From a virus (taxonomy: Duplodnaviria > Caudoviricetes): a DNA stretch of 58,253 nt. Of the stretch, positions 25,084-52,161 are shown piece by piece. The number at the start of each line of letters is the position of its first letter. The stretch's first letter is position 1. Location of the stretch: positions 1 through 58,253 of the IMG/VR virus record IMGVR_UViG_3300037465_000242. One strand, given 5' to 3'. The translations under genes were made by a program, and so were the position numbers. The notes below the pieces were generated by a model, which had not been told where the DNA came from, ran no database searches, and saw only the letters and a program-made list of their open reading frames with translations.

Positions 25084-26247
25084 ATGCCGATCAAGCCGAC
25101 CACGTTGCCAGAGTGGGCGAGCGATCCCGGGGCCGACATCGTCGAGCCCGCGCTCGCGCAGAAGCAGGACGGCTGGGACACGAGCGACCGGCCGCCGGCG
25201 CAGTTCTTCAACTGGTGGCAGAACAACGTCTTCACCTGGGTCCAGTTCGTCAACGCTCCCGTCGGCCAGGCCGGCCTGCCGGCCTTCGACGCGACGGGCG
25301 GCAGCTCGAGCGGCACGGGGATCAAGGCCACCGGTGGATCTCCGAACGGCATAGGGCTCCACGGCGTCGGCACAGGCTCGGGCGAGGGCGTTCTCTCGAT
25401 CGGCGGCGCGACGGACGGCACCGCAGTCAAGGGCACGGCGGGCGGCGCGAGCGGTCGCGGCGTACTCGGCATCGGCTCTGGCGCCAACGGCTTCGGCGTC
25501 CACGGCGTGGCGCCGGGGATCACGCCCGGATCGCCATCGGTCTTTACGGGAGGGCACGCAGGATTCTTCGAGGGGCTGGTGCGCACGCACGGTAGGCAGG
25601 CGATCACGCCCACGACGGCCGAAGGCTTGCGCGTCGACGGCATCGGCTCTGGCCAACCCGCGGCGATCCTGATGGCGGACACGTACGGCGTCCTGATCTC
25701 GGCCGGCGGGTTTTCCCCATCAGTGTTCGGATCGCAGACTGGTCTGAACGTCACCGGCGGCGGCACGGGGCTGTCGGCCGGTATTCGTGGCGTGTCGAAC
25801 AGCACGACTGCCGGCTCGCACGGTGTGATCGGCGAGGGCGCCGGCGCTAACTCCGGCGTCAGCGGCACAGGAGGACCCTCGTCCGGGGTGGGCGTAGAGG
25901 GTACAGCCGGAGGCGCGCTTGGCATAGGCGTGAAGGGGACGGCGACCAGCGGTGACGGCGTGCAAGGCTTCGCCAGCGGATCGGGATCGAGTTCTGGCGT
26001 CTATGGCAGGCAGAGCGGTAGCGGATTCGCTGGATTTTTTCAAAACGTAGGTACCGGCTACGGGCTCGTCGCCGAGGCCGATACGACGGCGCCAGTGAGG
26101 GCCGCTTTTCGTATCGTGCCGCAAGATACAGCGCCGACGACTGCTTTGAAGGGTGATCTCTATGTTCAAACAGGCGGCTCCGATGATGGTAAATTGAAAA
26201 TATTTAACGGTACGGCGTGGGTCACCGTCGGCGGCCAGGCGCCTTAG
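25084..26247 (+). CDS. tail fibre protein, glycine-rich repeats
   Basis: PEWA...GW...PPAQFFNWW baseplate anchor followed by GxGVxG repeats. Confidence 0.75.
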   Translation: MPIKPTTLPEWASDPGADIVEPALAQKQDGWDTSDRPPAQFFNWWQNNVFTWVQFVNAPVGQAGLPAFDATGGSSSGTGIKATGGSPNGIGLHGVGTGSGEGVLSIGGATDGTAVKGTAGGASGRGVLGIGSGANGFGVHGVAPGITPGSPSVFTGGHAGFFEGLVRTHGRQAITPTTAEGLRVDGIGSGQPAAILMADTYGVLISAGGFSPSVFGSQTGLNVTGGGTGLSAGIRGVSNSTTAGSHGVIGEGAGANSGVSGTGGPSSGVGVEGTAGGALGIGVKGTATSGDGVQGFASGSGSSSGVYGRQSGSGFAGFFQNVGTGYGLVAEADTTAPVRAAFRIVPQDTAPTTALKGDLYVQTGGSDDGKLKIFNGTAWVTVGGQAP

Positions 26248-26260
26248 GAGCGATATTCGA

Positions 26261-26773
26261 ATGCCAATCCTTCTCACGACTCCCTTGTCCGTCGGCGCTC
26301 TCGACGCCTCGGACTACACGCACGCGATCATCCACAGGTTCGAGATCCTCCCGACGCTCGGCAGGCTCAAGCTCGAGGTGCGTCACGGGAGAATCGTCGG
26401 CGGCGTCTGGCAGGACGGCGCGGTCCTCGTCGAGGGCAAGTCGATCAGGAGTTTCACGCTCGCCGATCGTTCTAGCCCCGCGTGGCAGGCACTGACGGAC
26501 TATGCGATCGGCGACGTGCGCAAGAACGACGGCGACAAAACGTACGTGTGCGCGGTCGCCGGCACGTCCGCCGCGTCGGGCGGCCCGACCGGGACCGGGC
26601 AGACGATCGTCGACGGCACTGTCACGTGGACGTACATCGGTATCGAGGCCGAGTTCACGACGATGGTCGCGAGCCTGCCGACGAGCGGCAGCGAGCTCAT
26701 CTACAACGGCGCGGCGCGCGTCCTCTACCAGTGGCTCATCGACCGCGGCCACTACGCGGGGACGATCGTATGA
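26261..26773 (+). CDS. tail-associated protein carrying a third copy of the ~52-aa module
   Basis: WQALTDYAIGDVRKND...AGTSAASGGPTGTGQTIVDGTVTWTYIG. Confidence 0.65.
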   Translation: MPILLTTPLSVGALDASDYTHAIIHRFEILPTLGRLKLEVRHGRIVGGVWQDGAVLVEGKSIRSFTLADRSSPAWQALTDYAIGDVRKNDGDKTYVCAVAGTSAASGGPTGTGQTIVDGTVTWTYIGIEAEFTTMVASLPTSGSELIYNGAARVLYQWLIDRGHYAGTIV

Positions 26774-27000
26774 CCGCCCTGCGGCCCGCGATCGTGCAGC
26801 TCACGCGCGCCGAGCGCGCCGAGCTCGAGGCGACGTTCTTGAAGCTCCGCGTCCTCGATCTCGAATACGCCGAGAATCGCGCCGCGATCCTCTCCGAGCA
26901 GGACCGCGTCGCCGCCGAGGTCCGCCGGCGCACCGGCGCGGACGTCCGCTCGGGCTACAGGATCGACGTCCGCACCGGGACGTGCCGGCTCGCCGAGTGA
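26770..27000 (+). CDS. hypothetical protein
   Basis: ATGA overlap with the previous stop; typical codon usage. Confidence 0.5.
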   Translation: MTALRPAIVQLTRAERAELEATFLKLRVLDLEYAENRAAILSEQDRVAAEVRRRTGADVRSGYRIDVRTGTCRLAE

Positions 27001-27135
27001 TCCTTGCGCTCGCGGGCGCGCGGCGCTAGCCTCCGATCCTCGGCCGCGGGTGGGCGCTTCTTGTGTGCGTCTCGCCCTCCCCCCAGGCGCAGGCCGGCCC
27101 GCCCGCGGCCAACCATGCGAGAGGAGTGAGAGCCC

Positions 27136-27621
27136 GTGCAAGACGTAGCCCTTCCCGCGGCGCCCGCCTCGGGCCTGCCGCCCGAGATCAACGTCGCCGT
27201 CAGCCTGATGCGCTCCGCCTACGACAACGCCGGCTGGCTCGGAGTCGCGGTCGCGGCCGTGCCCGTGCTCGTCAACGCCTACCGCTCGAGCTTCGTCCAG
27301 GGCCTAGCCCCGGCGCGGCTCAAGTGGGACGCGCTGCCGGGCTGGCTCAAGCTCGCCTCGCCCGTGCTCACGGCCCTCGGGACGACGACCGCGGCGAGCC
27401 TCGCCGCGGGCTTCCCGATCGGGGTCTCGCTCACGGCGGCCCTGCCGGCCGGGCTCGTCGCCGCGGGCTACCACGAGGTCGCCAAGTTCGTCTCCGCTAC
27501 GCGTCACGTCGAGAGGGCCCTGTCGAAGATGCCCGAGAGCGTGCGCAAGGCCGCGTCGCTCGCGAGCGTCAGGACGCGCCCGCGCTTCGACGAGCCGCCG
27601 GGCGAGGGCGGCGCGGCGTGA
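27136..27621 (+). CDS. membrane protein (holin candidate)
   Basis: GAGGAG RBS; 2-3 hydrophobic segments and a charged C-terminus. Confidence 0.5.
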   Translation: MQDVALPAAPASGLPPEINVAVSLMRSAYDNAGWLGVAVAAVPVLVNAYRSSFVQGLAPARLKWDALPGWLKLASPVLTALGTTTAASLAAGFPIGVSLTAALPAGLVAAGYHEVAKFVSATRHVERALSKMPESVRKAASLASVRTRPRFDEPPGEGGAA

Positions 27622-27929
27622 GGCGCCTCCTCTGGATCGCCTCGCTGGCCTCCGCCGCGGGGCTCGCGGCGTTCCTCTGGTTTACGAGCCGTCGCGGCAA
27701 GCTCTCGGCCTCGATCAAGTCCGAGGTCGCCGCGGCCAAGGCCGCCTGGGTCGCCGCCGAGGCCGAGGCCGAGCGCGGCGCCGACGCGGCCCGCGCCGAG
27801 GTCGAGGCGCGCCACAAGGCGGAGCTCGACGCCCTCGACGAGCGGCAGCGCGAGGAGGCGAAGGAGCTCGCGGAGGATCCCGCCGAGCTCGCGAGGTTTT
27901 TGGTTCGCGTCGGGCGCCGCGGTGCTTGA
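27618..27929 (+). CDS. N-anchored coiled-coil protein (i-spanin-like)
   Basis: GTGA coupling; N-terminal TM segment then an Ala/Glu-rich helix. Confidence 0.45.
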   Translation: MRRLLWIASLASAAGLAAFLWFTSRRGKLSASIKSEVAAAKAAWVAAEAEAERGADAARAEVEARHKAELDALDERQREEAKELAEDPAELARFLVRVGRRGA

Positions 27930-28323
27930 GGTCGCGCTCGTCTCGGCGCTCCTCGCCGTGCCCGCGTGCGACGGCGCCGACTGCGCGACGCCACTGCGAG
28001 CCGGCGAGCCGGCGCCGCACGACGGCCAGCTCCTCACCACCTCGCTCGCGATCCGTCTCGGCCAGCGCGCCGATCGGTGCGACGCCGTCGTCGCGATCGA
28101 GCTCGAGCGTGCCCGCGCCCTCGCCGCGGTCGATCTCGCCCTCGAGCGCGAACTTAGGCGGCTCGAGACCGAGGCCGCGGCGCGCAAGGCCGCGGCGCTC
28201 GAGCGCGCGATCGAGGCGGCCGAGCCGCCGTGGCACGAGCGCCCGGCGTTCGTCGCCGCGGCTTCGGCCGCACTCTCCGTGGCGGCGATGTACGCCGCCG
28301 CGCGCCTGGCGGTACCGAGGTGA
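27922..28323 (+). CDS. signal-peptide/lipoprotein-like protein with C-terminal TM (spanin candidate)
   Basis: Hydrophobic N-terminus ending LAVPAC (imperfect lipobox), coiled coil, C-terminal hydrophobic helix. Confidence 0.4.
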   Translation: MLEVALVSALLAVPACDGADCATPLRAGEPAPHDGQLLTTSLAIRLGQRADRCDAVVAIELERARALAAVDLALERELRRLETEAAARKAAALERAIEAAEPPWHERPAFVAAASAALSVAAMYAAARLAVPR

Positions 28324-28359
28324 CGGCGGCTCCGCGTTCTGCTAACGGGTGATCTCGAG

Positions 28360-28707
28360 ATGAAGATCGAGGCTGGACTGGCGGCCGCGACGGGCGCGGC
28401 GATCTTCTTGACGCAGGCCGCGTCGGCGGTCGCGTCGTCGCCGGCGCTCGACGTCATGACCCAACTCGTCTCCGCCCTCGGGCCGATGGGCTTCGTCATG
28501 TGGCTCGTCTGGCGGACGACGAACCACACGATCCCGAGGCTCGCGAAGAGTTTCGAGGACGCGATCGATAGACAGCGCGGAGAGTTCCGCGAGACCTTGA
28601 CCGAGCAGCGCGCCGACTTCATGTCCTCGATCGACCGCGAGCGCCAGGTGTGCGCGAAGCTCTCCGAGGCGATCGACAAGCTCGCCGACAGGGAGCGTGG
28701 TCGGTGA
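28360..28707 (+). CDS. membrane protein with coiled-coil tail (holin-like)
   Basis: Two hydrophobic segments then a charged helix. Confidence 0.5.
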   Translation: MKIEAGLAAATGAAIFLTQAASAVASSPALDVMTQLVSALGPMGFVMWLVWRTTNHTIPRLAKSFEDAIDRQRGEFRETLTEQRADFMSSIDRERQVCAKLSEAIDKLADRERGR

Positions 28708-28907
28708 CCCGCAAGGCGACCATCTCGATCCTCGTCGCCGTCGCGGCGCTGCTCGTCGCGTGGGACGTCTGGGTCTACCTCGAGCCTACGGGCGGCGACA
28801 CGATCAGCGAGGTCACGCTCGGGTTCGCCCGCCGCCATCCTGTCCTGCCGTTCGCGATCGGCGTAGTGTGCGGCCATCTATTTTGGAGCCAACGCCCGAA
28901 GGAGTGA
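28704..28907 (+). CDS. small membrane protein
   Basis: GTGA coupling; two TM segments; DTISE and GHLFW. Confidence 0.55.
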   Translation: MTRKATISILVAVAALLVAWDVWVYLEPTGGDTISEVTLGFARRHPVLPFAIGVVCGHLFWSQRPKE

Positions 28908-28913
28908 CTAGAA

Positions 28914-31436
28914 ATGGCCATCCAGCAGACGATCGACCGTCTCATTTCCATCCTCCAACGCTACGCCAACGTCCCGCCCAAGGAGGCGACGGCGCTGCGC
29001 GACGGCCTCGACGAGCTCGCGCCCTACGACACCGAGGCGGAGCTCCTCGCCGACACGCCCGACGACGGCACGATCGCCTACGCGGCCGACACCGGCGCGT
29101 TCTTCTTCCGTCGCGGCGCCGCGTGGGAGGCGTCGCCGAACCCGGCGATCTCCGCGACGCTCGACTGGAAGCAGTCCGTCCGCGCCGCGACCACGGCGAA
29201 TATCACGCTCAGCGGCCTCCAAACGATCGACGGCGTTTCGCTCGCCGCCGGCGATCGCGTCCTCGTCAAGAACCAGACGACCGCGAGCGAGAACGGCCTC
29301 TACGTCGCCGCCGCCGGCGCCTGGCCGCGCGCGGACGACGCCGACGAGGACTCCGACGTGACCGCCGGCCTCGCCGTCTCGGTGTCCGAGGGTGCCGTCA
29401 ACGCCGACAAGGGCTTCCTCCTCGCGACGAACGATCCGATCGTCGTCGGCACGACCGCGCTCTCGTTCGCCGAGTTCGGATCGATGCCCGACCCGTTCAC
29501 GCCACCCGACGGCACCTGGAACGTCATCGGCGGCATCTCGGTGCGCGCGAGCGGCGGCGCCAGCAACTCCGAGCAGTACGGCGACGGGGCCGATGCCTCC
29601 GCGCTCGACGCCACGGCGGTCGGCGCCTTCGCGGTCGCGTCCAACACGTCCACGACCGCGGTCGGCAAAGACGCGCAGGCGACGGGGGCCAGCGCCGTCG
29701 CGGTCGGCTCGGGCTCGGAGGCGTCTGGCAGCCAGGGGGCCACAGTCGGCAACAGCTCGCGCGCGAACGCCGCCAACGCGACGGCCTTCGGAACGGCGGC
29801 GGGCGCGGACGCTTCGGGCGCGACCGCCATCGGTCAGGGCGCTACGGTCAGCGCCGGCGCCACCGACGGCGTCGCCGTCGGGCGCGCGGCGTCCATCTCG
29901 GCGAGCAGCACCGGCGTCGTCCTCGTCGGCCCCGAGGCGTCGGTCACTGGAACCAGGACGGGCGTCACCGTCGTAGGCAAGCCCACCGGGGCGGTGTCTG
30001 CCAGCAACGTCACGGCGATCGGAGATTCCGTCAACGTTGGCTCAGGCGTCGCGGACGTGACGGCGGTGGGCCAAGGCGCTACCGCGACCGGAACAGAAGG
30101 GACCGCGATCGGCAAGTCCGCGGTCGCCAGCGCCGCGCAGGCGACGGCCGTGGGCAAGTCCGCGTCGGCGACGTTAGGCGGCGGGGTCGCGGTAGGACGC
30201 GCCGCCAGCGCCTCTAACAGCGACACGACGGCAGTCGGATCGCTAGCCTTCGCGAGCGGCAACGGCGCCACCTCTCTCGGCGAGAGCGCCAACGCCGCGG
30301 GCACCCGCAGCACGTCGATTGGGCGCGGATCGAACGCGACCACCACCGACAGCACGGCCATCGGTAACGTATCTATTGCTAGCGCGACAGGCGGTGGCGC
30401 CACCGCTGTCGGGCAAGCCGCGGTGGTCTCTTCCGCCGCCACCGACGGCATCGCGATCGGGCGTGCCTCCTCTCTGAGCGCCGCTGCCGGAGTCGTCATC
30501 GCTCCCGCGACGACCGTGAGTGCGTCGGGTTGTACTGTCGTCGGGAAGCCCACTGGCTCCGTCTCCGGCACAGATGTCACCGCGGTCGGCGACGGGACGA
30601 TCGTGGGCACGGGCATCGCGAATGTGACGGCGATCGGAGCCGACGCCGAGGCGACGTTCGCGAACGCGACTGCCGTCGGTAAGGGCGCTCGCGCCGTCGC
30701 CAGCGCCGCGACATCGCTGGGACAGGGCGCCGTCACGTCGATCGCGGACGGTGTCGCCGTCGGCCAAGCTGCCACATCTTCAGGCACGCAAGCGACGGCG
30801 CTGGGTTCTGGGGCCACGGCCTCGGCGTCGCAAGCAACCGCCCTCGGAAGCAACTCGAACGTCACAGGCGCGAACAGCACAGCTGTCGGCCGCGGCGCCA
30901 ACACCTCGAGCGCCACGGACGCACTCGCGGCGGGGCATGGGACCAACGCGACCGGGACGGAGAGCGTCGCGGTCGGCAAGTCGGCGGGCGCGACGGCGGC
31001 CGGCGGCGTCGCGGTGGGCAAGAGCGCTTCGGCCGGGCACACCGACGGCATCGCGATTGGACGCAATGCCGCGACGACCGCGGCGGGTGAGGGTGTCTGG
31101 GGCGCGCCGGCGAACAAGGTCAGCTTCCGCACCTTCGCCGGCGTGAGCTTCCCGACGGTCGCGAAGACTGCGGACTACACGGCGACGAAGGATGACTACA
31201 CGATCCTCGTCGACGCCACCGCGGGCGCCGTCACGATCACTTTGCCGGCCGCCGCGTTGCACCCGGGCCGCATCTACAACGTGAAGAAGGTCGACAGCTC
31301 GGCGAACGCGGTCACGATCGACGGGAACGGGGCCGAAACGATCGACGGCGCCGCGACGCAATCGCTCCCGGCGCAGTGGAACAGCAAACAGATCCAGAGC
31401 GATGGCACGGCCTGGTTCATCCTCGCGAGCGTGTAG
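28914..31436 (+). CDS. fibre/adhesin with YadA-head-like repeats
   Basis: GGAG RBS; WKQSVRAATTANITLSGLQTIDGV..GDRVLVKNQ domain; many ~14-aa A.AVG..A.A repeats; C-terminal ILVDATAGAVTITLP domain. Confidence 0.8.
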   Translation: MAIQQTIDRLISILQRYANVPPKEATALRDGLDELAPYDTEAELLADTPDDGTIAYAADTGAFFFRRGAAWEASPNPAISATLDWKQSVRAATTANITLSGLQTIDGVSLAAGDRVLVKNQTTASENGLYVAAAGAWPRADDADEDSDVTAGLAVSVSEGAVNADKGFLLATNDPIVVGTTALSFAEFGSMPDPFTPPDGTWNVIGGISVRASGGASNSEQYGDGADASALDATAVGAFAVASNTSTTAVGKDAQATGASAVAVGSGSEASGSQGATVGNSSRANAANATAFGTAAGADASGATAIGQGATVSAGATDGVAVGRAASISASSTGVVLVGPEASVTGTRTGVTVVGKPTGAVSASNVTAIGDSVNVGSGVADVTAVGQGATATGTEGTAIGKSAVASAAQATAVGKSASATLGGGVAVGRAASASNSDTTAVGSLAFASGNGATSLGESANAAGTRSTSIGRGSNATTTDSTAIGNVSIASATGGGATAVGQAAVVSSAATDGIAIGRASSLSAAAGVVIAPATTVSASGCTVVGKPTGSVSGTDVTAVGDGTIVGTGIANVTAIGADAEATFANATAVGKGARAVASAATSLGQGAVTSIADGVAVGQAATSSGTQATALGSGATASASQATALGSNSNVTGANSTAVGRGANTSSATDALAAGHGTNATGTESVAVGKSAGATAAGGVAVGKSASAGHTDGIAIGRNAATTAAGEGVWGAPANKVSFRTFAGVSFPTVAKTADYTATKDDYTILVDATAGAVTITLPAAALHPGRIYNVKKVDSSANAVTIDGNGAETIDGAATQSLPAQWNSKQIQSDGTAWFILASV

Positions 31437-31438
31437 GC

Positions 31439-31822
31439 GTGCGCTCCTTACTCCTCGCGCTCCTCGGGCTCTTCGCCCAGGCCGATCGGCCCGGGGCGCT
31501 GGCGCGCCTCACTCTCCGCGGCTCGATCGCGCCGTCCGCCACGGTCATGATCGACGCAGAGTCCGTGGGCCACGACGCGCAGGCCGTCGCGGCGCGCTAC
31601 GAGGAGACGGGCGGCGGGCCTTCCTGGCGCGGCGCGTGGCTCGTCTACGAGCCGAACCACGTCACTGCCACGGACGATGGCGCCGAGTTCGAGCGGCCAG
31701 CGCTCGCCTGGCGCCTGCCGATCGACGAGCTGCCGGACGCGATCGAGGTGGCCAGAGCCTGGGCGCCCCACGCTCGCGAACTGCTTGCCGGCGAGTCGGT
31801 GGCGGCGAGGGGCGGCCCGTGA
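31439..31822 (+). CDS. hypothetical protein with signal-peptide-like N-terminus
   Basis: GTG 31439 just after the previous stop; LLLALLGLFAQA. Confidence 0.45.
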   Translation: MRSLLLALLGLFAQADRPGALARLTLRGSIAPSATVMIDAESVGHDAQAVAARYEETGGGPSWRGAWLVYEPNHVTATDDGAEFERPALAWRLPIDELPDAIEVARAWAPHARELLAGESVAARGGP

Positions 31823-32052
31823 AAGACATCGTGAGCGTCGCGTTCAGCGTCGACGAGGTAGAGCTTAGCCGCCTCGTCGCGCTCGGCGGCCCCGAGTCGC
31901 GGGTCGAGCTCGAGGAGCTGCTCGCAAAGGCTCGGGACGTCATCGAGAAGGCGACGCGCGATCTGTCGCTACTGTTCGCCGAGTACGAGGACCGCTTCCG
32001 CGCGCGCGTCGGCCGCAACGTCGTGCCGTTCCGCGGCGCCAAGGAGTCTTGA
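31819..32052 (+). CDS. hypothetical protein
   Basis: GTGA coupling; ends NVVPFRG. Confidence 0.5.
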   Translation: MKDIVSVAFSVDEVELSRLVALGGPESRVELEELLAKARDVIEKATRDLSLLFAEYEDRFRARVGRNVVPFRGAKES

Positions 32053-32053
32053 G

Positions 32054-32494
32054 ATGCCGTTCAAGCTCGGCCCGAAGTCCCTCGAGCGCCTGCGCGGCGT
32101 GCACCCGGACCTCGTCCGCGTCGTCGAGCGGGCGATCGGCTACAGCCCGGTCAATTTCGCCGTCTCGGAGGGCCTCCGCTCGATCGAGCGCCAGCGCGAG
32201 CTCGTCGCCAAGGGCTTCAGCAAGACGCTCGCGTCGAAGCACCTCGTGCAGGTAGGCGGCCTCGGTCACGCGGTGGACGTCGTCGCGGTCGGCGACCTGA
32301 ACGCCGACGGCGTGATCGACGCGCAGGACAAGTCGCTCACTTGGTCGCCCGCGATCTACCGCTCGATCGCCGCCGCGATGAAGCGCGCCGCCGCCGAGCT
32401 CGGCGTGCCGATCCGTTGGGGCGGCGACTTTAAAAGTTTTTTCGATGGTCCTCATTTCGAGCTCGTCGACCTGAGCGAGATCTCGCGGCGCTAG
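32054..32494 (+). CDS. endolysin, M15 family L-Ala-D-Glu peptidase
   Basis: SLERLRGVHPDL, EGLRS.ERQ, SKH, GHAVD, IRWGGDF, DGPHFEL. Confidence 0.92.
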   Translation: MPFKLGPKSLERLRGVHPDLVRVVERAIGYSPVNFAVSEGLRSIERQRELVAKGFSKTLASKHLVQVGGLGHAVDVVAVGDLNADGVIDAQDKSLTWSPAIYRSIAAAMKRAAAELGVPIRWGGDFKSFFDGPHFELVDLSEISRR

Positions 32495-32730
32495 TCCTCG
32501 GGGTCGATCGGCGCTGGCGGCGCCTCGGGCTCGGGGCGCGGCGCAGCCGGCGACAGCGAGTCGAGCAGCGCGAGGAGCTCGTCCGCGGGCACGGCCGCGA
32601 CTCCGGCGGCGTCGAAGCGCGCCTGCGCGGCCCACGACCGGACGCGCTCTAGGTCGGCGCGTCGCGCCTCGAGCTCCGCCGAGATCCGGCGGGCCAGGTC
32701 GCGCAGGGCGGCGCTCTCGTCGTCCATCAC
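32491..32730 (-). CDS. hypothetical protein (last gene of the - strand arm)
   Basis: Converges on the endolysin with overlapping stops. Confidence 0.45.
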   Translation of the reverse strand: MMDDESAALRDLARRISAELEARRADLERVRSWAAQARFDAAGVAAVPADELLALLDSLSPAAPRPEPEAPPAPIDPED

Positions 32731-36175: not shown

Positions 36176-36376
36176 TCACCGCGCCCTCGCGGCCGAGCGA
36201 GCGCCGTGACAGACCGAGCACAAGCAGTCCTCGATCCGCACCAGCGGCGGGCCTTCGAGCGGGCCGACGGTCGAGCTGCCGACGATCGCGTGGTAGCCCA
36301 TGCGCTCGATGCCGGCGCGCCTTCTCGGGTAGACGCTCGTTTCGTCGTACACTTTCCAACTCGGTGATCTCGCCAT
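36176..36376 (-). CDS. small early protein
   Basis: GAGGAG RBS before ATG 36376, just downstream of hammerhead 2. Confidence 0.45.
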   Translation of the reverse strand: MARSPSWKVYDETSVYPRRRAGIERMGYHAIVGSSTVGPLEGPPLVRIEDCLCSVCHGARSAARAR

Positions 36377-36423
36377 GGTCTGCTCCTCGCGGTTCCCACC
36401 GGGCGACCTGCCCGGCTTCGGCT

Positions 36424-36487
36424 CCCGCTACCGGGGCGCCCGGAGGCGCCCGCGGTTTCGGTCCTGCCACGGGCCTCGTCAGGCGGG
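36424..36487 (-). ncRNA. type I hammerhead ribozyme (copy 2)
   Basis: Minus strand: CCCGC-CUGACGA-GGCCC GUGGCA GGACC-GAAA-CCGCGGGCGCC UCCG GGCGCCCCG-GUA-GCGGG; full core and three stems (one mismatch in stem II); predicted cut between 36429 and 36428. Confidence 0.88.
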
Positions 36488-36490
36488 GCG

Positions 36491-37594
36491 TCAGGCGGCA
36501 CTCACCTCCACCGCGTCGAGCAACCGCGCGGCGCGGCGCTCGAGGTCGAGGCGCTCGTCGCCGAACGGGACCTCGTGCGCCTGGGCGGTGAGGCCCTGCA
36601 CCAGCGACCACACCGAGCGCGGATTCGCGCCCGGCTCCGCGGCCGCGAGCTCGATCGCGCGCCGGCTCTCGCCCTGCGTGAAGCCTCGGGCCTTGAGCCA
36701 CGACTTGGCTTCCTTCTCGCTCCTGCCCACCTCGATCGCGCGGGCCTGCCGGACCATGGCCACCGTCTCGTCGGTGCTCGCCGTCAGGTAGCGTTGGATC
36801 GCCGGCCGCGCCTCGCGCAAGTAGCGCATCGGGCCGCCCGAGGTGTGCCGGATCTTGAGCGACCGGACCTCGCGCCCGCCCCAGATGATGCGATTGTCGC
36901 AGATTCGTCGATAGAGGAACGCCGTTACCTCGAACGCCGCCGCGCCGACCTCGCTGTTGCGCGCGATCAAGCCACGGAACAGCGTCTCGACGCCGCTCGT
37001 CCCCGGGACCTCGATCGGGTGCTGGTCGTCGACCAGGCACACGAAGCAGTCGCGGTCGGAGGCGTAGAGCGTCGTCGCCTTCTTCGGGTCGGTCGCAGCG
37101 TACGAGGCCGCCGGAACTTTCCACGCCTCGAGGTCGAGGTGCTCGAGGATGGCGCTCGTCAGCTCGGCGTCGTAGATCCTGCTGTACGTGTCCGACGTGA
37201 TCGCCTCGACGCTCCACCTCCCGGCGCCGCCGTTCGCCTGCGCGTGGCGGAGCAGGAGCTTCGCGTCCTCGCGCTGCTGCTCGAGAGAATACTGGAGCGG
37301 GATCTGCGCGAGCTCCGCGGGGAGCGTGCGCAGGTAGCCCGCCGGCGCCTTCGCAGCGCCGGCGAGCTGGCCGAAGGCCCAGTGCGTCAGCACCGCGCCC
37401 GTGCCCTTCTCGGGGTCGACGAGGGCGAGGTCGCCGTCGTCGAGCGCCCGCACCCGCAGGTGGTCGAGCGCGACCCCGCGCTGCCGCGACGCGGCGCGCT
37501 TGCTCTCGTTGTAGACGTGCAGCTCGGGCACGGTCAGGAAGCGCTGGTCGCTCGGTCGGTTCTGCCACTCTTTGTTGATCGCCAGGGTGTCCAT
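36491..37594 (-). CDS. DUF932-like protein
   Basis: AGGAG RBS; W.NRP.DQRF, THWAFGQL, LYASDRDCF..LVD, NSEVG, R.ICDNRIIWG, H; family named from motif recall. Confidence 0.65.
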   Translation of the reverse strand: MDTLAINKEWQNRPSDQRFLTVPELHVYNESKRAASRQRGVALDHLRVRALDDGDLALVDPEKGTGAVLTHWAFGQLAGAAKAPAGYLRTLPAELAQIPLQYSLEQQREDAKLLLRHAQANGGAGRWSVEAITSDTYSRIYDAELTSAILEHLDLEAWKVPAASYAATDPKKATTLYASDRDCFVCLVDDQHPIEVPGTSGVETLFRGLIARNSEVGAAAFEVTAFLYRRICDNRIIWGGREVRSLKIRHTSGGPMRYLREARPAIQRYLTASTDETVAMVRQARAIEVGRSEKEAKSWLKARGFTQGESRRAIELAAAEPGANPRSVWSLVQGLTAQAHEVPFGDERLDLERRAARLLDAVEVSAA

Positions 37595-37645
37595 AGGATC
37601 TCCTCTCGGGTGTCCGGCCCGGGCGACGTGCCCGAGCCTTTGGTT

Positions 37646-37704
37646 CCCGCTACGCGCTCGCGCGAGCGCGTTTCGGCCGGGTCCGCCCGGCCTCGTCAGG
37701 CGGG
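37646..37704 (-). ncRNA. type I hammerhead ribozyme (copy 1)
   Basis: Minus strand: CCCGC-CUGACGA-GGCCGGG CGGA CCCGGCC-GAAA-CGCGCUC GCGC GAGCGC-GUA-GCGGG; perfect stems; predicted cut between 37651 and 37650. Confidence 0.92.
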
Positions 37705-37705
37705 G

Positions 37706-38260
37706 TTAGCGCACTTCGCGAATCACTATGTCGCCGTGCCCCGCTCTCGCCTCGGCCTGCTCTCTGACCTCGTCCTCGTCGTCGCCAGCAGCCAGGACCA
37801 TCGGCGCTATAGACAGAGCCGCCCATCCGAGCGCGGCGCAGGTGCCTACGTCCTGTCTCGCGATCGCGATATATCTGGTCGCGGCGGCAATCGACTCCTC
37901 GATGAACTCTTCGACCGCATCGACCGCATCGCCGTAGGACACGACCTCACCCCACCCGCTCTCGATCTTGGCAGCCTCGCGGATATGGCGCAGCGCCTCC
38001 GCCACGCGGCCACCTTCTAGTGCCCGAATCGCCGCATCGGCCTCCTCGGCCGCTGCCCGCGCGTCGCTACCGGCACGCGCGCAGTAGGCGCAGTCGGCGC
38101 TACTGCCGGCGCACCAGACGGTGTCGTCGTCGGGGTGATCGGCCGTGCACGACGGCGCACACTCGTGTTCGTGGGTCCAGTTGCATCCGGTCCAGGATTC
38201 CCGGGCCCGGCGGATGGTGGTGATGGTGTCGCGTACGTCGGTGATATGCTGCGAGTTCAT
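37706..38260 (-). CDS. Cys/His-containing early protein
   Basis: ATG 38260 downstream of the predicted promoter; TAA stop abuts hammerhead 1. Confidence 0.5.
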   Translation of the reverse strand: MNSQHITDVRDTITTIRRARESWTGCNWTHEHECAPSCTADHPDDDTVWCAGSSADCAYCARAGSDARAAAEEADAAIRALEGGRVAEALRHIREAAKIESGWGEVVSYGDAVDAVEEFIEESIAAATRYIAIARQDVGTCAALGWAALSIAPMVLAAGDDEDEVREQAEARAGHGDIVIREVR

Positions 38261-51036: not shown

Positions 51037-52161
51037 CTAGCCGCCTCCGACTATTTGTTGCGCGTCGATCTTGAGCCTCCGCTCCCATATCTCTCGATCC
51101 TCGCGCGACAGCATGCTCAGGACGGACTCGGCCTCGGAGACGCACGCGCCGTGGGCGGGCCCGTCGACCAGGTCGAACCGCTCCAGATCGCCGCGCCTTC
51201 CGCACAGCCTGCATGCTCGAGACCCCGAGGGACTCCACGTCCGCAGGTCGACGTCCTCGTAGCCCGGGGCCTCGTTGCCGACGCAATCCCACCCGTCGCG
51301 GGCGCGCCGGGCGAAGAGCTCTAGCCTCGGGCCCGCGTACATCGCCTCGAGCTTGTCTTGCAGCTCCTCGGGCTTGGCGCTGTGGCGGAGCGCCGGCGAG
51401 CAGTGTGCGTTGAGCTGCGACCGGCTGTCGGGCTTCGGTCGCCCGCGGACGCCGATCAGCGCGTGCTCGGTGCAGCCGCGGAAGTGATGGCCCATGCCCA
51501 TCTGCAGCTTGACCTCGAACGCCGCGTGGTCCTCGCGGTCGAAATCGTGCAGCTCGGCCTCGACGGCCTCGGGCAGGCGCAGGCGCTCGAGGCCCGGGAT
51601 CGTCCGCAGCGCCGGGATCGCGGCCAGCGCGTCGGACCAAAACCGCGACCGGCCCATGAGGCGGTCGAACGCCTCGCGCCCACCGGAGCAGCGGTCGTCG
51701 CCGGCGAGGTCGAGGAGCCGGTTGACCTCGTCGAGGTGCCCGCCCGGGTATGGGCCGAGGCGCTCGCCGCGCGCGTAGGCAGCGTCCGCGCGGGCGCAGT
51801 CGTAGTCGTCGACGCCGGACTCGTGGAGGATCTCGCGCCACGCTTCGCCGAGGTCGGCGAACCTCGGCGGCCTGGGCGGCCGCGGGTTCCTCGCGCCCTT
51901 GAGCCACGTGTAGACCTGCTTGTGCGCGAAGCCCCACGCGGCCATGACCACGAGGCCGTCGGCGAGCAGCGCGGAGGGCGTCCAGAGCGCCAGCACGGCG
52001 TCGGGCGCGCACCAGTCGCCGACCGGGATCGCCGCGATCTCGGCGGTGAGCATGGTCGGGTAGTGATCCACGGAACCGCGCCGAACGGCGGACATGGCAA
52101 GCCTGTCGCCGAACGACCACGGCGGGTCGACGACGATCACCCGATAGGGCTCGAACCTCAT
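51037..52161 (-). CDS. MT-A70 family N6-adenine methyltransferase with insertion
   Basis: VIVVDPPW, HYPTM, LALW, AWGF, GMGHHFR..TEH, HSAKP, RLELFAR, GNE. Confidence 0.88.
   Translation of the reverse strand: MRFEPYRVIVVDPPWSFGDRLAMSAVRRGSVDHYPTMLTAEIAAIPVGDWCAPDAVLALWTPSALLADGLVVMAAWGFAHKQVYTWLKGARNPRPPRPPRFADLGEAWREILHESGVDDYDCARADAAYARGERLGPYPGGHLDEVNRLLDLAGDDRCSGGREAFDRLMGRSRFWSDALAAIPALRTIPGLERLRLPEAVEAELHDFDREDHAAFEVKLQMGMGHHFRGCTEHALIGVRGRPKPDSRSQLNAHCSPALRHSAKPEELQDKLEAMYAGPRLELFARRARDGWDCVGNEAPGYEDVDLRTWSPSGSRACRLCGRRGDLERFDLVDGPAHGACVSEAESVLSMLSREDREIWERRLKIDAQQIVGGG

Follow-up and report, generated by a model that had tools for sequence, protein, structure and literature searches.

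The question raised by this locus is what two self-cleaving ribozymes might do on either side of a single phage gene. It lies in the tailed-phage record IMGVR_UViG_3300037465_000242, an IMG/VR virus record (58,253 nt, linear, 69.7% GC, 76% complete), the whole of which is called the window here. A first-pass annotation of this DNA had described two hammerhead ribozymes on the minus strand, here HH-A and HH-B (Table 1), around a gene of the DUF932 family, and had proposed that they excise a 1222-nt RNA able to circularise. On the evidence of sequence and comparison, our analysis supports the ribozymes and the excision, while circularisation of the DUF932 segment is unsupported. Most probably, HH-A and HH-B are type I hammerheads of a phage family that sit in intergenic cassettes and cut a polycistronic transcript into separate messages independently of RNases.

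Both sites have the complete architecture of a type I hammerhead. HH-A reads CCCGC / CUGACGA / GGCCGGG-CGGA-CCCGGCC / GAA / A-CGCGCUCG-CGCG-CGAGCGCG-U / A / GCGGG, and HH-B reads CCCGC / CUGACGA / GGCCC-GUGGCA-GGACC / GAA / A-CCGCGGGCGCC-UCCG-GGCGCCCCGG-U / A / GCGGG. The core in its type I order (C3 U4 G5 A6 N7 G8 A9 ... G12 A13 A14) is intact in both, as are G10.1-C11.1, A15.1-U16.1 and a non-G nucleotide at position 17. Stems II and III are closed by loops and stem I is open at both sites, which is the type I layout, and the cleavage triplet is GUA, followed by G after the cut. HH-A combines a stem I of 5 bp (CCCGC/GCGGG), a stem II of 7 bp with the loop CGGA and then GAAA, and a stem III of 8 bp plus the A15.1:U16.1 pair. 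HH-B has the same stem I and core, a stem II (GG-CC/GG-CC) with one C.A mismatch and the loop GUGGCA, and a stem III of 11 pairs with one bulged C. The full cores, the identical stem I and the stems II and III that differ and yet pair are thus present as the first-pass annotation had described them. For HH-A the predicted minimum free energy (MFE) structure coincides with the canonical three-helix fold, which has -37.4 kcal/mol (z-score -2.97) and takes up 74% of the ensemble, and stems III of HH-A and HH-B are both long and stable in the predicted folds.

The bare core pattern was matched three times in the window compared to a mean of 2.55 in shuffled sequences. This is not significant, and therefore the full architecture was scanned for instead. 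The descriptor, which requires the core, three helices, A15.1-U16.1 and a non-G at position 17, found exactly two sites, HH-A and HH-B. In 200 first-order Markov shuffles the mean was 0.02, with one match in four shuffles and two matches in none. The Rfam hammerhead models, which had been suggested as the first check, did not report either ribozyme: cmscan gave no hammerhead in the window at the gathering score and none at E ≤ 10 in 36200-37900. We attribute this to a low sensitivity of the model and not to the locus, because RF00163 also gave no match over its 34-bit cut-off in the window record and in four ribozyme-rich records (best score 28.4 bits). RF00163 has the same permutation (open stem I), core and cleavage chemistry as HH-A and HH-B, but in the phage family stems II and III are longer and A9 is often followed by an additional U. 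This U, inserted between A9 and G10.1, is present in roughly half of the CCCGC-type hammerheads (e.g. L010, L012 and L019) and absent from HH-A and HH-B.

As Rfam was blank at the locus, we trained a covariance model of our own, R1, on 42 type I hammerheads taken from viral contigs other than the window. The training set (A2) contained sequences without the extra U after A9, which had been misplaced in a MAFFT alignment of 101 sequences. On the window with filters off, R1 scored HH-A at 57.1 bits (E 6e-12) and HH-B at 37.1 bits (E 5e-7), and the third-ranked match reached only 12 bits (E 0.9).

HH-A and HH-B belong to a large family of phage-borne ribozymes. A pattern taken from the window (CCGC-CUGANGA...CGAAA...GCGG), by which stem I is fixed, was searched in IMG/VR contigs and matched more than 113 stretches among the matches listed. 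In these loci the descriptor scan found 102 distinct compact hammerheads (among the matches listed), many of them clustered with two to seven per locus. R1 gave 122 matches at E ≤ 1e-3 in 100 sources, including HH-A and HH-B, the latter in the lower tail of the family scores. The family alignment (A3), with 112 distinct sequences among its 122 matches, has 95.7% of its cells paired. It was fitted to the model and hence favours the structure; in slid controls, 34-47% were paired. Compensatory changes occur in 14 of the 16 pairs (330 cells), which was reached by none of 500 shuffles, and the core is invariant across the family alignments. GUC is the triplet of most members in this pattern-selected set, and GUA is found in HH-A, HH-B and some others. 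These results support HH-A and HH-B as genuine members of the type I hammerhead family.

With a second pattern that leaves stem I free, we obtained a stem-I-unbiased set of 87 distinct type I hammerheads, including a few loose matches. Stem I is very diverse in this set (UUAA, CUAA, ACAA, CCAC and others). AT-rich viral contigs (L124, L150, L190, L132, L147, L161, L179, L183, L214 and others) contain recurrent stem I classes that are found across contigs, for example GGUUAA/UUAACC and GUCUAA/UUAGAC; the sequence of stem I is kept and stems II and III vary freely. When bacterial and archaeal genome contigs were searched with the DNA pattern, R1 was passed by 3 of 80 loci among the matches listed and the rest were mostly chance matches; this search reached no link to the experimentally tested ribozymes of Agrobacterium and Azorhizobium. 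The three loci are located on a Nostoc calcicola contig (L259) and on metagenome-assembled genomes of Cyanobacteria (L314) and Clostridia (L258), and are presumably prophage-borne.

Members of the family share their placement between genes. A Shine-Dalgarno (SD) sequence and start codon follow the cut in 84 of 106 cases, mostly at a distance of 26-56 nt, and stem I begins 0-3 nt after a stop triplet (any frame) in 57 of 106. In the window the ribozymes begin 1 nt (HH-A) and 3 nt (HH-B) after a stop codon, as had been noticed before, the latter being the TGA of the DUF932 gene at 36493-36491. On the 3' side, loop II (typically ..GGNN..) is complementary to nucleotides 1-3 positions 3' of stem I, with examples such as UGGCA-AGCC, GGUA-AACC, GGUC-GACC and GGGAUA-AUAUCC. 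In the CCGC set (n=105) the complementary run between loop II and flank had a mean of 3.84, compared to 3.29 in 300 permutations (maximum 3.48). For HH-B, UGGC of loop II can form a pseudoknot of 4 pairs with GCCG at 36422-36419, just 3' of stem I. Such loop II pseudoknots were critical for fast cleavage at 0.5 mM Mg2+ in the work of Perreault et al. 2011 (PMC3088659).

Further downstream, CCGC, which is complementary to the 3' strand of stem I, is present 2-32 nt away in 66 of 96 cases. Composition-matched 4-mers were found in 4-20 of 96, and a control segment had CCGC in 13 of 96. In several members this leader complement covaries with stem I (GUGGG-CCCAC in L050, GCGGU-ACCGC in L082). The DUF932 leader on the minus strand contains a hairpin (37638-37616), CCCG (37610-37607) and the SD AGAGGAG (37606-37600), and it is predicted to fold at -28.2 kcal/mol with CCCG pairing to the 5' end. 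The leader after HH-B likewise contains a hairpin (36416-36398), CCGC (36392-36389) and the SD GAGGAG (36388-36383). In both downstream products the 5' GCGG(G) is predicted to pair with the CCCG or CCGC that directly precedes the SD, thereby enclosing the hairpin. The leaders of the window and those of its closest relative (G001/L001, a complete genome with exactly two R1 matches and a DUF932 that is 77% identical) share a consensus fold with compensatory changes in three pairs, in a comparison of four sequences only. The hairpin after HH-B is 94% identical to that after HH-A (repeat D18), and the two cassettes share an identical block of 17 nt. Each unit is a cassette of about 115 nt, composed of stop codon, hammerhead, putative pseudoknot partner 3' of stem I, hairpin, stem I complement, SD and start codon, and the HH-A and HH-B cassettes, judged by their sequences, are paralogous to each other.

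Besides the blank in Rfam, several observations weigh against the reading of HH-A and HH-B as ribozymes that process a transcript. The canonical fold of HH-B has -35.5 kcal/mol and lies 2.6 kcal/mol above its MFE of -38.1 kcal/mol, its stem I has an ensemble probability of about 1% in a model that ignores the pseudoknot, and when the 3' flank is folded along, the MFE structure is other than a hammerhead; stem II also carries the mismatch. The pseudoknot of HH-A is limited to GG:CC with a weak partner, CC at 37643-37642, and in Perreault et al. a pseudoknot cut down to two pairs lowered the activity more than 100-fold (PMC3088659). In the stem-I-unbiased set, the pseudoknot test, which is a crude one, was not significant (2.97 compared to 2.84, maximum 3.06), and the signal for the leader switch was absent (4.09 compared to a permutation mean of 4.01, maximum 4.23). 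Co-transcription of the minus-strand cluster is assumed. Finally, a search for sequence data covering 36300-37800 of the window listed no RNA run but two DNA records from freshwater metagenomes, one of them possibly the source sample.

Some of these features would be expected if the ribozymes were decaying, with one or both copies no longer cutting usefully and no defined 1222-nt RNA being made. The HH-A pseudoknot has 2 bp, whereas the orthologue in L001 has pairing of the UGGC:GCCG type; HH-B combines the stem II mismatch and a competing fold with a low R1 score; and both sites have GUA where most of the family has GUC. From the minimal pseudoknot of HH-A and the unfavourable fold of HH-B it follows that one copy may be slow or inactive. 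However, GUA is a permitted hammerhead cleavage triplet and is used by other family members too, all core positions together with G10.1-C11.1, A15.1-U16.1 and the non-G at 17 are intact in both ribozymes, and stems III are long and stable. In addition, the closest relative has kept both cassettes. Decay to this extent is therefore quite unlikely in our view.

If HH-A and HH-B process the transcript, they would fold while it is being made and cleave it behind A37651 and A36429. A compactly folded ribozyme carrying a 2',3'-cyclic phosphate would then form the 3' end of each upstream fragment, while the downstream fragments would start with a 5'-OH and their GCGG(G) would refold onto the nearby CC(C)G(C), leaving the ribosome-binding site just 3' of the 5'-terminal structure. 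Two messages are predicted to result, one of 1222 nt for DUF932 and one downstream that begins with the 66-aa open reading frame (ORF), so that message stability and translation would be uncoupled from the neighbouring genes. The two cleavage sites, both on the minus strand, are 1222 nt apart and are found at gene junctions, where cuts at 37651/37650 and 36429/36428 would release a single-gene RNA and operon processing without RNases would follow, as the first-pass annotation had anticipated. The only plausible gene between them is indeed the DUF932-like ORF with its ribosome-binding site, which matches Pfam PF06067 (E 1.2e-5, 25.6 bits with a cut-off of 23) and phrog_1362 (E 3.6e-32). What the sequences themselves show is family membership, covariation, placement and the predicted folds; that the cluster is co-transcribed, that both sites are cut in vivo and that message stability and translation change as a result, we infer.

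The first-pass annotation went further and suggested that the excised RNA becomes a circular mRNA. Cleavage by type I hammerheads yields 5'-OH and 2',3'-cyclic phosphate ends and is reversible, and the ends of the 1222-nt RNA would thus be chemically ligatable. The 5'-OH GCGGG would pair with CCCGC of HH-B, and the hammerhead itself or an RtcB-type ligase would join a translated circle. Because HH-A and HH-B have the same stem I strands, joining the ends would restore a whole hammerhead there. The inner stem I is likewise identical in 33 of 57 neighbouring same-strand pairs of the family (window pair included), and 8 more are trans-compatible. Perreault et al. raised the possibility of circles too, but report that no circular or spliced products were detected, with the data not shown (PMC3088659). 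The complementarity of the strands across the junction holds, but it is not special to this pair: an identical stem I is explained by the paralogy of the cassettes and by family-wide conservation, where the search pattern itself required CCGC/GCGG.

Other observations also argue against a circle. Stem I is paired in cis through compensatory changes and mismatched in trans in 16 of the 57 neighbouring pairs, which indicates selection for cleavage in cis. Local pairing is predicted for the 5' end set free by the cut, and the probability that this end pairs with CCCGC of HH-B within the 1222-nt RNA is ~0.001, although thermodynamic prediction over 1.2 kb is unreliable. In L001 the ribozymes bracket two genes rather than one, and ligation would leave a whole ribozyme at the junction, able to cut again. 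A literature search, with subscription journals outside its coverage, found no report of circular RNA from phage hammerheads. We therefore regard the circular mRNA as highly unlikely, and the same holds for an elaborated version in which stem I of neighbouring cassettes acts as a splint, the leader complement masks the rebuilt ribozyme and a circular, translatable DUF932 mRNA persists. If true, it would mark the first case of a double-stranded DNA phage making a protein-coding circular mRNA.

Relatives of the DUF932 locus were compared, as the annotation had suggested. In L001 the first hammerhead precedes DUF932, as in the window, but the second comes after an additional ORF of 310 aa whose stop codon abuts the ribozyme, and the ORF that follows is unrelated to the 66-aa ORF of the window. 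Both hammerhead-plus-leader units of about 115 nt are retained, and they bracket two genes in L001 and one in the window. The extra ORF (L001:4193-5125) has no Pfam family, and at the corresponding position, 36488-36491, the window has none. A hammerhead adjoining DUF932 was found in L001/L359 (L359 is the same contig as L001) and in L367, where it lies 18 nt after the DUF932 stop, but in none of the other DUF932 relatives fetched (L001-L008 and L359-L376, several of the contigs being too short). The collection of cultured phages contained no close relative, the sole match being 78 nt in a Microcystis phage.

The comparison with L001 also bears on the idea that the repeats of about 115 nt are primarily module boundaries, offering short homologies for the exchange or insertion of gene cassettes, with cleavage secondary or tolerated. 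The window and L001 share HH-A with DUF932 and HH-B with its leader, and differ by the 310-aa ORF before the second ribozyme and the unrelated ORF after it. The paralogous window cassettes, with their identical 17-nt block and 94% identical leader hairpin, would provide such homology, and many contigs carry three to seven cassettes in tandem, around ORFs that are small and mostly unannotated. A pure recombination role, on the other hand, would not keep the core invariant while the stems covary, and would not maintain a pseudoknot between loop II and flank. The synteny comparison rests on one close relative, and exchange can coexist with RNA processing without replacing it. Module exchange as the main role thus appears unlikely, and transcript processing remains the better explanation of the cassettes. 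Long tandem arrays were seen at L082:5678-10567, L107:695-3341 and L121:8736-12044, with six to seven hammerheads in a row at a spacing of ~220-900 nt and a small ORF after each; in L082 every hammerhead is followed by a conserved leader (..CUGCAAUGGAG..).

Clustered hammerheads around single prophage genes were described in 2011 by Perreault et al. (PLoS Comput Biol, PMC3088659), with examples from Agrobacterium tumefaciens (around ardA), Azorhizobium caulinodans and Clostridium scindens. Three clustered arrangements cut in vitro at all expected sites and one was cleaved in vivo in E. coli, and the cutting of phage transcripts into single-gene messages was proposed there (PMC3088659). The window shares with these prophages same-strand intergenic hammerheads that bracket single genes or short blocks; their tertiary contact is a pseudoknot, for which the window has candidate pairings. 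It differs in being an uncultured freshwater virus and in the flanked gene, DUF932. The CCCGC/GCGGG subfamily, the 3'-flank pseudoknot and the leader complement may already be contained in the 2011 work. The arrangement has been known since 2011, and this locus adds another case and not a new kind of system. Among the 123 distinct ORFs after hammerheads (median 88 aa), few have Pfam families; the commonest are YodL (5), DUF932 (3, one of them in L001) and ArdC-N (2). With ArdC-N and DUF932, neighbours of the anti-restriction type recur, as in Perreault et al. A literature search on the function of DUF932 turned up nothing on its mechanism.

Viroid-like RNAs and retrozymes (de la Pena and colleagues) resemble the window in their same-orientation hammerheads, the unit-length RNA and the ligatable 5'-OH and 2',3'-cyclic phosphate ends. 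They are small, mostly non-coding and highly self-complementary and are copied via RNA or cDNA, whereas the window unit is a protein-coding segment of 1.2 kb in the operon of a double-stranded DNA phage, with local folding predicted at its 5' end. Bacterial twister and other self-cleaving ribozymes occur in the same phage-linked, intergenic gene neighbourhoods, and processing of polycistronic RNA has been suggested for them in one review (PMC6765202); unlike the window hammerheads, they have another fold and another catalytic core. That review describes their function as unresolved, and the role of the many hammerheads in phage genomes is still called open in reviews (PMC6765202, PMC6155905). 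Against this background the locus is a clean, minimal test case, with two ribozymes, one gene of a family that recurs next to hammerheads, and the complete genome of a close relative where two genes lie between the same cassettes. Testable features come from the family analysis as well, namely the pseudoknot between loop II and the 3' flank and a leader able to capture the 3' strand of stem I after cleavage. The statistic on neighbours that are paired in cis and mismatched in trans bears on the old question of whether clustered hammerheads make circles.

The features of the locus are collected in Table 1. Whether the upstream ORF is a gene is uncertain, because it has only a weak match to phrog_21394 (E 0.004) and failed the filter for coding GC at third codon positions (GC3).

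Table 1. Features around the two hammerheads, listed in the direction of transcription (window positions).
Feature	Position	Strand	Remarks
Upstream ORF, 242 aa	37706..38434	-	No Pfam family; TAA stop 37708-37706 ends 1 nt before HH-A
HH-A, type I hammerhead	37646..37704	-	Predicted cut after A37651, between 37651 and 37650
5' leader of the DUF932 message	37595..37645	-	Sequence, predicted fold, four-leader consensus fold
DUF932-family gene, 367 aa	36491..37594	-	Pfam PF06067, phrog_1362, GC3 0.95
HH-B, type I hammerhead	36424..36487	-	Predicted cut after A36429, between 36429 and 36428
Leader of the next ORF	36377..36423	-	Sequence, fold -25.1 kcal/mol, alignment fold
Small ORF, 66 aa, no family	36176..36376	-	Would be the first cistron downstream of HH-B

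The plus-strand genes of the window are structural (terminase, Mu-type portal, capsid and DUF3383), and the co-oriented cluster on the minus strand contains DUF5906, an MT-A70 methylase, an SNF2-related helicase and DNA polymerase A. This leftward cluster of replication and early genes is probably transcribed as a long polycistronic RNA. Between 32 and 42 kb of the window no promoter-like sites were found, and terminator-like sites were not in excess. The MT-A70-type DNA methyltransferase gene of the cluster is located at 51037-52161 on the minus strand. In the region from 25100 to 32500, between the structural and the replication modules, few ORFs pass the GC3 coding filter.

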